From a virus, in the UHGV virus genome UHGV-0360402: 41,827 nt of DNA; one strand, 5' to 3'. Below the pieces are notes generated by a model. The model had not been told where the DNA came from, did no database searches, and was given only the letters and a program-made list of their open reading frames with translations. Below, piece after piece: positions 6,237-36,668 of this stretch; position 1 is the stretch's first letter, and each line of letters starts with the position of its first letter. Position numbers and translations under genes: made by a program.

Positions 6237-6251
6237 TTACCTTTCAGGTGA
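6237..6251. promoter_or_regulatory. Operator-like site TTACCtttcaGGTGA
   Basis: Member of TTACC-N5-GGTAA family (one mismatch); 40 bp upstream of LexA box. Confidence 0.5.
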
Positions 6252-6290
6252 TTTGCAAAACGTGCTGGATAGCAAACAAATTATTTGCTA

Positions 6291-6306
6291 CTGTATAAAT
6301 ATACAG
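6291..6306 (+). promoter_or_regulatory. LexA (SOS) box CTGTATAAATATACAG
   Basis: CTGT-N8-ACAG with AT-rich centre, 18/20 to TACTGTATATATATACAGTA; 22 bp upstream of ATG 6328. Confidence 0.8.
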
Positions 6307-6327
6307 TTATTGCATGGAGAAGATAAG

Positions 6328-6585
6328 ATGCAGCAGTATCACTATCCACTGGAAGACGGATTTACCGAAAGGATTCACACGCCGGGAGGCGTCAGGTCAC
6401 TGGTGGAGGGATCGCACTTGATGAAATTACTCCGGGATCTCGATAAGGATGGATTTAATGTCGATGGCCCACTTGCCGAACTGACTGCACTGATTAACTA
6501 CGTCACCAGCTCACAGATGTCTATGCGGGATCTGCAAACACATCTCGACTATTGTGCCGAACAATTACGAAAACAAACCCGGTAA
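6328..6585 (+). CDS. Small SOS-controlled protein (85 aa), stand-alone copy of the C-terminal module shared by the two antirepressor genes; candidate antirepressor
   Basis: GGAGA RBS; LexA box in promoter; alignable to C-termini of 7736-8392 and 9256-10194 products (LM-LL-DG-AELT-RD-QTH). Confidence 0.7.
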   Translation: MQQYHYPLEDGFTERIHTPGGVRSLVEGSHLMKLLRDLDKDGFNVDGPLAELTALINYVTSSQMSMRDLQTHLDYCAEQLRKQTR

Positions 6586-6591
6586 ATTTAA

Positions 6592-6609
6592 AGGCCGCAA
6601 GAGCGGCCT
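6592..6609. terminator. Hairpin between convergent genes (aggccgc-aaga-gcggcct)
   Basis: GC stem directly after stop of 6328-6585; overlaps 3' end of minus-strand gene. Confidence 0.5.
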
Positions 6610-7336
6610 ATCGTTTCGCTTTGTGCTCATCCCAGCACGTTTTGCACCATGCCATTAAGCCGTCCGCATTTTGATTATTAGGGTAAAAGCTGGTTCGTTT
6701 TCTGCGGACATTACAAATTGGGCACCACTTCATATGGCGTGTATTCTTTGGGCCATCGAGACACCTTGCACACCATTTAGTCAATCCATCTGGATTTTTT
6801 GACGATTTCCTGAATTTTTCATATGGAAGGTTTATTCTGCATCGCAAGCACTGCTTGCTACCACTTGAAACTCTGTTAGCTGATTCTTCTTTTGGCGGCG
6901 ATACAGAAGGTATTCTTGCTGGCTCTGATATTGCCTGAGGTGCTTTTTTAGATGACTGAGACGATATGTCATCACCAGGGAATCTTCCATGATATGCCGG
7001 ACGCGTTGACACTCCAGGTGGAATCTCAGCTGTAAACGGCTTTGGCTGAATCAGTTGCCTCTCTTTTGCTAACTCCTGCTGTTTATAATATGTCTGGATT
7101 ACCGCACTATCATAAGCAGGAGGTGCGGAAATATTAGGCGCATTACCTCCAGTTTTTTGAAACTGAGTAGAGGTGTGTTCTATCACCTGTGTACGATTAA
7201 TCGTTATCTCCCCATCTTCGGTCTTTATCGTTTTGTTATGATTAACGACCGTACGATCAGAGATCTTAGTCTTGTTCTGGTTGATAACGTAAATAATCAC
7301 CGCAACCACACCAACAACTATCCAGAAAACTTCCAT
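6608..7336 (-). CDS. Membrane-anchored protein with two C-terminal CxxC...WCxxC zinc-ribbon repeats (242 aa)
   Basis: GAGGA RBS; N-terminal TM helix; tandem Cys motifs CLRC...WCARC and CPIC...WCKTC; operator at 7357-7371 just upstream. Confidence 0.65.
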   Translation of the reverse strand: MEVFWIVVGVVAVIIYVINQNKTKISDRTVVNHNKTIKTEDGEITINRTQVIEHTSTQFQKTGGNAPNISAPPAYDSAVIQTYYKQQELAKERQLIQPKPFTAEIPPGVSTRPAYHGRFPGDDISSQSSKKAPQAISEPARIPSVSPPKEESANRVSSGSKQCLRCRINLPYEKFRKSSKNPDGLTKWCARCLDGPKNTRHMKWCPICNVRRKRTSFYPNNQNADGLMAWCKTCWDEHKAKR

Positions 7337-7371: not shown

Positions 7372-7449
7372 TATCTTGCTTTCAGGTGATCAAGCGTTAA
7401 ACGCAATCAACCAAATACGGTTGATTTTAATATTTCTTCGCGTTTATCA

Positions 7450-7464
7450 TTACCTTTGCGGTAA
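7450..7464. promoter_or_regulatory. Operator-like palindrome TTACCtttgcGGTAA
   Basis: Perfect half-sites; abuts candidate promoter TTACAT-18-TAGTAA at 7467-7496. Confidence 0.6.
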
Positions 7465-7497
7465 ATTTACATTGCACTCCTCTTGTGCCATAGTAAT

Positions 7498-7577
7498 CGG
7501 GCACTGGCAAAATCCAGTGCCGGGATTGGTCTCCCGGATTACTAAGTGGCGCATACCACGCCAGACGTGGTTTTTTT
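7498..7577 (+). ncRNA. Candidate small RNA or terminated leader upstream of antA-like gene
   Basis: Promoter-like elements 7467-7496; two stable hairpins (gcactgg/ccagtgc; cggga/tcccg) then terminator hairpin ccacg/cgtgg plus T7; the overlapping 110-aa ORF lacks an RBS. Confidence 0.4.
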
Positions 7578-7735
7578 ATGCGTATAGCACAGTCATGCCA
7601 GAATTATGGTGGGCTGAATGGGGGTCCGAAAGGACGCCGGTACCACTTAGGCCGGTAAGACCAACTCCGTTCAGTTCACCACCATCTGATTGGTCTCAGC
7701 GGTGGTGATGTAATTCGCTAAGTGGAGACGCCATC

Positions 7736-8392
7736 ATGAACGCTCAACTCATCCCCGTATTCAACGGCACTATATCTAACGAAACAGCCCTACTTTGTAA
7801 TGCCCGCGATCTGCACGCTTTTTTAGGTGTTAAAAAGGTGTTTGCAGCATGGATTACAAATCGCATATCAGAATACGAATTCATTGAAAATCAAGACTAT
7901 ATTTTGCTTTCCAATTTGGGAAAGCAAACATCTGGTAGAGGCGGCCACAACCGCAAAGAGTACCACCTCACCCTTGATACAGCCAAAGAGCTGGCGATGG
8001 TCGAGCGTAACGAAAAAGGTCGCCAGGTGCGACGCTACTTCATTGAATGCGAGAAACGTTTAAGACAACAAGAAACAAAAGTGGAGAAGGTCTTGTCAGG
8101 CTTCATGCCCGCCATTATGGAGGCGATCAAGCTGGAAGACAAAAAAGAATACAGCGCCCCACTGAAGCCCGGCTACCGTAGCCTGATTCATTCGCCGTCT
8201 GGTGTTCTCGGCCTGACGGAGAACTCACTGCTGATGAATTTGCTGAACCAGTTACAGGAAGACGGGCACGACGTATCGGGCGCGGCGGCGGAACTGACCA
8301 CCATGTTCTGCTACATCGTCGGTGTGAGCAAATGCCTGCGTGATATCCAGACCCACGCGGAGTACATCAACGACAAGGCAGGGTTCTTCTGA
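7736..8392 (+). CDS. Antirepressor-type protein: AntA-like N-terminal domain fused to shared C-terminal module (218 aa)
   Basis: GGAG RBS; N-terminus matches AntA-type pattern ([39 protein letters not shown]); C-terminal 78 aa near-identical to C-terminus of 9256-10194 product. Confidence 0.8.
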
Positions 8393-8464: not shown

Positions 8465-8479
8465 TTACCTTAAAGGTAA
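8465..8479. promoter_or_regulatory. Operator-like palindrome TTACCttaaaGGTAA
   Basis: Identical to site at 7357; overlaps -10 of candidate promoter TTGCAG-17-TACTAT (8437-8465). Confidence 0.6.
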
Positions 8480-35965: not shown

Positions 35966-36028
35966 TCACCCATAAGGTAACAAAAATCAAGGATAGTTAC
36001 CTATGGGGTGCATTTACCTGTTGGGTAA
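35966..36028. promoter_or_regulatory. Tripartite operator region between cro-like and repressor genes
   Basis: Three sites: TCACCcataaGGTAA (35966-35980), TTACCtatggGGTGC (35997-36011), TTACCtgttgGGTAA (36014-36028); overlap a candidate leftward promoter. Confidence 0.65.
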
Positions 36029-36083: not shown

Positions 36084-36668
36084 ATGAAAAGTATCCAGGA
36101 CGTCCGCAGGCAAAATCTCAACGACTTGATCGACCGTGAATTCAATGGTGTTCAGACGCGGATGGCAGAAAAACTTGGAACTCAGGCAAATCTGGTAAAC
36201 CGCTGGGCTCTTGGCAAGAAGGTTATCGGCGACCAGGTTGCGCGAAAAATTGAAGCTGCCGCCAATAAACCCCGTAACTGGCTTGATATCGATCGCTCGC
36301 TTTCTCAGGAAGGTTTTCAGCCTGTCGGCCCAAGCGACATTGGTCAGCTGGCAGCTCACAACCTGGAACGCTGGATGAGTGAAAGCCGCGACCTTTCAAC
36401 TCAGGGAAAACTTCACCGCGCATCCGGCGTCGCCCAGGTGACAATAAGCCGCCTGTTAAACAATGAGGTCAGCGTTTCCATTTCCACCCTGGAGAATGTT
36501 GCATCTGCATTCGGGCGTCACGGATATGAACTACTGATTCATCCACATGACCCTGCAACTATCAACTATGACCGCTCGCGCTACGCATTGTTACCTGAAA
36601 CAGAGAAGGCAAAGATCGAAAGTTACATTGAATTTGTCATCAACCAGAACGAAAAAAACAAACAATAA
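36084..36668 (+). CDS. Prophage repressor candidate (194 aa), HTH, no S24 peptidase domain
   Basis: N-terminal HTH (GVQTRMAEKLGTQANLVNRWALGKK) and second HTH-like segment; no Ser/Lys autocleavage motifs; divergent from cro-like gene; own terminator. Confidence 0.65.
   Translation: MKSIQDVRRQNLNDLIDREFNGVQTRMAEKLGTQANLVNRWALGKKVIGDQVARKIEAAANKPRNWLDIDRSLSQEGFQPVGPSDIGQLAAHNLERWMSESRDLSTQGKLHRASGVAQVTISRLLNNEVSVSISTLENVASAFGRHGYELLIHPHDPATINYDRSRYALLPETEKAKIESYIEFVINQNEKNKQ

Follow-up and report, generated by a model that had tools for sequence, protein, structure and literature searches.

What lies between the promoter and the antirepressor gene at this locus, and does it control that gene? 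Within the window (the whole 41,827-nt stretch of virus DNA that was analysed), a sequence-only reading had singled out an approximately 80-nt segment upstream of an antA-like gene, with two stable hairpins and a canonical terminator, and had proposed two alternatives, a small RNA in its own right or a leader with conditional termination. Judged by its homology to isrK of prophage Gifsy-1 the segment is both together, but that reading missed the central regulator of the locus. The stretch between terminator and RBS, which had passed as a spacer, holds a full-length C4 antisense RNA at 7602-7686. We consider it likely, with a probability of roughly 80 %, that the region upstream of the antirepressor gene ant is an antisense switch of the P1-type immI/Gifsy-1 isrK kind, governing that gene. 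The tandem of an IsrK-like RNA and C4 upstream of ant is a system already known, and the phage that carries it here is of the Uetakevirus type.

A scan of the whole window with Rfam at gathering thresholds returned four matches, to isrK, C4, sar and tRNA-Arg, of which the first two are separated by 24 nt. The IsrK-like RNA scores 67.7 bits against RF01394 (threshold 50) and C4 scores 61.2 bits against RF01695 (threshold 45), and both matches span the complete model (positions 1-77 of 77 and 1-87 of 87, respectively). RF03163, the c4-a1b1 model for the a1 and b1 targets of C4, comes up only when the threshold is relaxed: at 7488-7540 it scores 39.9 bits (E = 1e-8), against the 46.7 required. 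Because the same hairpins pass the isrK model, and because the isrK and c4-a1b1 models overlap on one element in Gifsy-1, this miss is a matter of threshold and reflects no structural difference. The gene downstream had been correctly recognized as antA-like (PF08346 AntA, 91.8 bits), and its counterpart in Escherichia phage phiv142-3, a Uetakevirus, is annotated as a putative anti-repressor. A 251-bp query covering the module (7495-7745) is 100 % identical to phiv142-3, in whose record the IsrK-like and C4 RNAs are both unannotated; similar DNA was found in 251 phage records. The features of the locus are collected in Table 1.

Table 1. Coordinates of the isrK/C4/ant module and its surroundings in the window
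Feature	Position	Strand	Basis or remark
Operator-type palindrome TTACCTTAAAGGTAA	7357-7371		Lies towards the divergent gene 6608-7336 (minus strand)
110-aa ORF	7376-7708	+	Mechanical TTG-start ORF only; runs across both RNA genes
Operator-type palindrome TTACCTTTGCGGTAA	7450-7464		Adjoins the -35 hexamer of the isrK/C4/ant promoter
Sigma-70 promoter-like site	7466-7494	+	-35 TTTACA (7466-7471), 17-nt spacer, extended -10 TG-n-CATAGT (7489-7494)
IsrK-like RNA (equivalent of the c4 a1b1 leader)	7501-7577	+	Rfam isrK match and fold
IsrK hairpin 1	7501-7520	+	Fold
IsrK hairpin 2	7521-7536	+	Fold
a1 TTGGTCT	7526-7532	+	Loop of IsrK hairpin 2; complement of a'
b1 CTAAGTGG	7542-7549	+	Single-stranded IsrK linker; complement of b'
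Intrinsic terminator	7555-7577	+	ACCACG/CGTGGT (7555-7571), T-run to 7577; picked up by terminator scan
C4 antisense RNA	7602-7686	+	Rfam C4 match and fold
b' CCACTTAG	7643-7650	+	Loop of second C4 hairpin
a' AGACCAA	7658-7664	+	Internal loop of C4
Conserved hairpin, 8-bp repeat TCACCACC (7676-7683)/GGTGGTGA (7701-7708)	7676-7708	+	Exact match
a2 TTGGTCT	7690-7696	+	ant leader; complement of a'
b2 CTAAGTGG	7718-7725	+	Overlaps Shine-Dalgarno GGAG (7724-7727), 8 nt before ATG 7736
ant, 218-aa antirepressor	7736-8392	+	Regulated target; PF08346 AntA

Both of the hairpins described earlier are present in the predicted fold of the 77-nt IsrK-like RNA, which has an energy of -29.4 kcal/mol (z = -2.9 against dinucleotide shuffles). 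The terminator also lies where it had been placed, 159 nt before the ant ATG against an estimate of about 160. Across an alignment of 14 homologous modules, hairpin 1 is 97.9 % paired with compensatory change in six of its seven pairs, hairpin 2 is 94.3 % paired, and the six columns of the T-run are invariant. The terminator helix is only 49 % paired in the MAFFT alignment, which is an alignment artefact. Folding of single sequences recovered the terminator hairpin in all homologues but one, the P1-like 673R5. In Gifsy-1, IsrK is a short RNA that ends at its own terminator and binds Hfq, while some transcripts read through to become the antirepressor mRNA (PMC4825925).

The 85-nt C4 RNA is the most stable structure of the region (-41.2 kcal/mol, z = -5.5). 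Its 17-bp basal stem (7607-7623/7665-7681) surrounds two hairpins, P2, with a GAAA loop, and P3, and is 100 % paired in the 14 aligned sequences, with compensatory changes in 4 of the 17 pairs; CCA or CCC follows the stem in all 14, an indirect sign of processing. In P1, RNase P reportedly processes C4 from the operon transcript at its 5' end. The first hairpin enclosed by C4 RNAs is often capped by a stable tetraloop (Weinberg 2010). For Gifsy-1, a processed species of approximately 80 nt, STnc1160, has been mapped (PMC4825925), at a position that coincides with the Rfam placement of C4, and orf45/STnc1160 of Gifsy-1 can be identified as C4.

In the C4 fold two segments remain single-stranded, b' (CCACUUAG) and a' (AGACCAA), and each finds a perfect complement at two places on the same strand. 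On the + strand of the window, the b-site sequence occurs only at 7542 and 7718, and the 10-mer GATTGGTCTC is found only at the b1 and b2 places, against 0.04 occurrences expected. Judged on these sites, the element has all the sequence features of a P1-type module, with a' and b' complementary to a2 and b2, one of the target sites overlapping the RBS, and a second site pair, a1/b1, upstream of c4. It falls short only in the orf45 feature of Gifsy-1 and, narrowly, at the c4-a1b1 score threshold.

Evidence for these pairings also comes from homologues. We compared 15 modules: those of the window, a P1-like Punavirus, Gifsy-1, phiV10, TL-2011b, Tyrion, a Klebsiella phage, APSE-2, VT2-Sakai, phi345, phiP27, SW-37 and three IMG/VR contigs. 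All 15 carry the tandem of isrK and C4, downstream of which lies an antirepressor-type gene or, in modules of the P1 type, icd. The b' loop exists in 12 versions among them and the a' segment in 5, and all three sites always change together. Thus b1/b2 reads UCACCG in Gifsy-1, where the b' loop is CGGUGA; the corresponding pairs are CUAAAAGG and CCUUUUAG in phiV10, UAACAAGG and CCUUGUUA in APSE-2, GCUCRAGG and CCUUGAGC in phiP27, and GUCUAAGG and CCUUGGAC in the P1-like phage. In a search confined to the loops, the longest contiguous complementarity of b' was 7.7 bp with a module's own b1 and 8.0 bp with its own b2, against 4.2 and 5.0 bp with the sites of other phages; for a' it was 7.0 bp with its own a1 and likewise with its own a2, against 4.2 bp in both cases. 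The b2 site lies within about 30 nt before the start codon in 14 of the 15 modules, usually as part of the Shine-Dalgarno (SD) sequence, and in SW-37 it abuts the start codon.

Pair counts were taken from the MAFFT alignment of 14 modules, in which the b loops and the terminator are out of register, and the b sites were analysed without alignment. Both a1:a' and a':a2 are 100 % paired in the 14 sequences, with three of six pairs changed on both sides in the former and four of seven compensatory in the latter. In each of the two runs, the whole structure scored above every one of the 500 shuffles and every slid control. An RNAduplex matrix of whole C4 segments against whole target regions was dropped as noisy, with cross-pairing between GC-rich hairpin stems. 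Family membership, structures, three-way complementarity and covariation all hold for this window. With 12 b variants among 15 phages, the a/b sequences appear to behave like interchangeable immunity specificities.

A scan of viral contigs for ATGGTGGGNNNNATGGGG gave 125 matches, mostly due to chance; about 20 lay in an IsrK/C4 context and represented 16 unique sequences. Two IMG/VR contigs, L025 (1478-1561, minus strand) and L006, differ downstream of C4: the sequence after the conserved hairpin is replaced, with no b2 or ant following. L025 carries an Rfam sRNA-Xcc1 match (77.4 bits) and a tRNA cluster downstream of C4. Both contigs look like C4 modules detached from an antirepressor.

The conserved hairpin itself had been noted as an 8-bp inverted repeat preceding the RBS. 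The repeat is exact, but it is not a free-standing feature, as its 5' arm belongs to the 3' strand of the C4 basal stem, of which it comprises the last six bases plus CC. The 3' arm repeats, further downstream, the sequence of the stem's 5' strand, and a2 lies in the loop. The hairpin folds at -16.3 kcal/mol (z = -4.0) and is 95.5 % paired in 14 sequences, with two pairs changed on both sides; one such two-sided change, CCACCGC/GCGGTGG, occurs in the P1-like phage and in IMG/VR contig L020. The level of pairing and the two-sided changes therefore mark it as a real, conserved element. It would show a2 in its loop, as IsrK hairpin 2 shows a1. Its formation is predicted only in the transcript before processing and would take up 6 of the 17 pairs of the C4 stem.

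The operator and promoter-like elements proposed upstream of the hairpins are likewise present, and the position of the promoter is conserved in 15/15 homologues. The predicted transcript start, approximately 7501, was set by alignment to Gifsy-1, and the published mutant numbering (G28, G31, C159, C162) fits the first base of hairpin 1. Thirteen sites in the window match the palindrome TTACC-N5-GGTAA with at most one mismatch, where 0.83 would be expected, and none of 100 shuffles gave as many (sites at 6237, 7357, 7450, 8465, 26694, 29884, 29902, 33645, 33707, 35966, 36014, 36726 and 36788). Copies in pairs flank the replication genes and the gene for a 194-aa HTH_3 repressor (36084-36668), some lying between the cro-like gene and the repressor gene (35966-36028) and more of them downstream of the latter; the copy at 8465-8479 precedes the next small ORF. 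Because the same palindrome sits between the cro-like and HTH_3 genes, we infer that the copy adjoining the -35 hexamer is an operator of the prophage repressor. Five phages of the Uetakevirus type retain the half-sites TTACC/GGTAA upstream of the -35 but vary in the 5-nt spacer, the signature of a protein-binding site. The 13 sites are probably a set of prophage repressor operators, dispersed over the genome like the C1 operators of P1, and by analogy the repressor would control the isrK/C4/ant promoter as C1 does the P1 operon (PMC8198154).

A first operator pattern was dropped for its wrong spacing, with matches at chance level, and weak Rfam matches over the operator region, to lysM-TM7 and CRISPR-DR57 (E about 0.4), were taken as chance. 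The divergent promoter region also contains, between two operator copies, an 8-bp inverted repeat at 7405-7426 (AATCAACC-aaatac-GGTTGATT); it was flagged in the terminator scan but is AT-rich and upstream of the promoter, and may be another protein-binding site. The divergent gene (6608-7336, minus strand), with an operator copy at its 5' end, is a 242-aa ORF with a hydrophobic N-terminal segment, a Cys-rich C-terminus and a weak, below-threshold Stc1 match.

How might such a module work? The mechanism that is best supported, by analogy with P1 and Gifsy-1, is that b' occludes the ant SD directly and that IsrK competes with it. Transcripts would start at about 7501 from a sigma-70 promoter with a repressor operator beside its -35, and the majority would end at the terminator to yield the 77-nt IsrK-like RNA. 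The read-through fraction would carry C4 and the ant mRNA. C4 would be excised from this precursor, its long stem displaying the unpaired b' and a', and these would pair with b2, on the ant SD, and with a2, so that ribosome binding is blocked and no antirepressor is made. Transcription of ant would then probably be stopped through Rho-dependent polarity, as in P1. The IsrK-like RNA, which carries identical a1 and b1 sites, would compete for C4 as an anti-antisense RNA, and a burst of IsrK would free the ant RBS.

Four of these steps are proposed on the strength of experiments on P1 and Gifsy-1: the processing of C4, the occlusion of the SD, a decoy function for IsrK, and control of the promoter by the repressor. 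The C4 RNA of P1 pairs around the RBS and thereby represses synthesis of Ant (PMC8546580, PMC12197685), the operon is also repressed by C1 (PMC8198154), and, as recorded in Weinberg 2010 Additional file 1, the P1 work proposed that a1b1 and a2b2 compete for C4. In Gifsy-1, IsrK supplied in trans raised anrP translation 139-fold (PMC4825925), and the published pairs G28:C162 and G31:C159 are exactly a1:a' positions when numbered from the transcript start. A pure decoy model does not fit Gifsy-1, as a1 mutations in cis raised anrP translation and did not lower it, and constitutive STnc1160 gave no relief of IsrK toxicity (PMC4825925). A further contribution probably comes from pairing in cis between a1b1 and a'b' within the read-through transcript. 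As IsrK and C4 share one promoter, C4 can win only if it is much more stable than IsrK, which is assumed here.

The Gifsy-1 paper takes the C4 region as a 45-codon orf45 coupled to anrP (Hershko-Shalev 2016, PMC4825925). According to that model, the read-through transcript is inactive through cis pairing of IsrK, and IsrK in trans opens the RBS of orf45, whose translation is coupled to the antirepressor. Start- and stop-codon mutations in orf45 lowered activation in Gifsy-1 (PMC4825925), and the window would allow the cis pairing a1b1:a'b' just as well; nevertheless, we regard this explanation as unlikely for the present locus. The ORF that begins at the AUGG homologous to the orf45 start (7606) is closed after 3 codons (ATGGTGGGCTGA), approximately 120 nt before the ant ATG, and across the 15 homologues its equivalents vary from 3 to more than 45 codons and encode unrelated peptides. 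Coupling through orf45 therefore cannot operate here, and C4 most likely blocks ant translation directly. Moreover, this ORF falls wholly within the C4 structure, and the published mutations of orf45 therefore change the C4 stem as well. In Gifsy-1, repression was not regained in the compensatory double mutants (224 and 327 units versus 4; PMC4825925), a result expected if a' must also pair with an unchanged a2. On this reading the window carries a natural orf45-null IsrK locus. If ant is still regulated in it, the P1 mechanism, in which C4 (STnc1160) occludes the SD and IsrK acts as decoy, might be common to all IsrK loci, a proposition to which we give even odds.

Attenuation of the kind described for P4 CI, which corresponds to the conditional-termination leader proposed from the sequence alone, would shift the point of control to the terminator: C4 acting on nascent a1/b1 would set the termination frequency at 7555-7577, and occlusion of the RBS would be of minor importance. 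The b1 site ends 5 nt before the terminator stem, the Gifsy-1 authors themselves raised the analogy with P4 seqA/CI/seqC (PMC4825925), and a transcriptional fusion in that prophage rose 8-fold with IsrK in trans (PMC4825925). However, the covariation of b2 with b', and its overlap with the SD in nearly every homologue, would go unexplained, and no alternative antiterminator pairing was found in the fold. The translational effect in Gifsy-1 (139-fold) is also far above the transcriptional one, which fits relief of polarity. We consider attenuation an improbable account of this module.

That the region encodes the 110-aa protein, with the hairpins incidental, is scarcely credible: a 110-codon stop-free frame is present, but it begins with TTG and passes through the intrinsic terminator, stop-free stretches over the region have a different frame and length in each homologue, substitutions compensate RNA pairing, and two covariance models score above their thresholds. 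The sequence-only reading was right to dismiss this ORF as a gene. Public phage records contain hypothetical proteins annotated across IsrK/C4, namely L16 of phiP27 (1131-1790; L127) and two CDS of phi345 (1113-1235 and 1232-1399; L132), and in L131 a minus-strand CDS (1345-1542) is annotated over the two RNAs. All of these probably repeat the kind of mis-annotation represented by the 110-aa ORF.

The module stands beside several known systems, immI of P1 and P7 being one of the closest. The order of elements in immI is said to be a1b1 leader, c4, a2b2, icd and ant1/2, as attributed to Citron & Schuster (1990). The window shares with it the element order, the C4 fold, the antirepressor downstream and (as inferred here) an operator for the main repressor, together with the complementarity of a' and b' to upstream and downstream site pairs and the position of b2 on an SD. 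The P1-like phage aligns from IsrK hairpin 2 through C4, and scores 49.5 bits for isrK and 75.9 bits for C4. Unlike P1, the window is without icd, and b2 lies on the SD of ant itself, as in Gifsy-1. Its Ant is an AntA-domain protein of 218 aa, unlike Ant1/2 of P1, and the a/b specificity is CUAAGUGG/UUGGUCU as against GUCUAAGG/UUGGCC in the P1-like phage. The module resides in a Uetakevirus-type podovirus, whereas P1 is a plasmid prophage.

The isrK-orf45/STnc1160-anrP region of the Salmonella prophage Gifsy-1 has the same layout, with approximately 236 nt from the transcript start to the ant ATG here and approximately 241 nt in Gifsy-1. In both, IsrK has two hairpins and a terminator, b2 lies on the antirepressor SD, and C4 occupies the place where STnc1160/orf45 was mapped. 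The two differ in that orf45 is not open in the window (3 codons), in a/b specificity, and in the putative repressor operator carried by the promoter here, the Gifsy-1 type and other lambdoid versions having a consensus-like promoter (TTGACA-N17-TATATT) without the TTACC-N5-GGTAA palindrome. Neither antQ nor isrJ is found near the module in the window.

Antisense control of an antirepressor is also known from sar of P22 immI (RF00262), which likewise blocks translation at the RBS. It is a true cis-antisense RNA from the opposite strand, whereas C4 is transcribed from the strand of its target and pairs by short loop sequences. P4 CI, with seqA and seqC, is likewise a processed, leader-derived RNA that pairs upstream and downstream of itself (as cited in PMC4825925), but it causes premature transcription termination of replication genes, whereas the target in the window is an SD; no Rfam match to a P4 CI-type family was found in the window.

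A copy of sar, with an ant gene of its own, lies 2.5 kb away from the module. This second, P22-type antirepressor module comprises ant2 (9256-10194, minus strand; 312 aa, P22_AR_N) and the sar RNA (10196-10263, plus strand; 45.2 bits, threshold 43) opposite the 5' end of ant2, which is itself downstream of a small, Arc-like ORF of 67 aa without a Pfam match (10267-10470, minus strand). With the AntA module under C4 and the P22-type ant2 under sar, the phage has two antirepressors, each under a different antisense-RNA system. An inverted repeat of 240 bp (8159-8398/9250-9489, 229/240 identical) forms the ends of the two convergent ant genes and encodes the same C-terminal domain of approximately 75 aa in both; a 110-aa ORF at 6253-6585 is a diverged stand-alone copy of this domain.

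For annotation, two RNA genes take the place of one spurious 110-aa ORF, and the module would account for the silence of one of the two antirepressors in this Uetakevirus-type prophage. The point of wider interest concerns the reading of the literature more than this window: compared at the sequence level, IsrK of the Salmonella literature, the c4-a1b1 motif of Rfam and the leader of the P1 immI operon appear to be one and the same module. The 2016 IsrK paper (PMC4825925) nowhere cites P1 c4, and a 2025 review (PMC12197685) gives IsrK and c4 as separate systems. Should ant prove to be regulated here without orf45, the orf45-coupling model of Gifsy-1 would need revising, and IsrK and c4-a1b1 would form one family.
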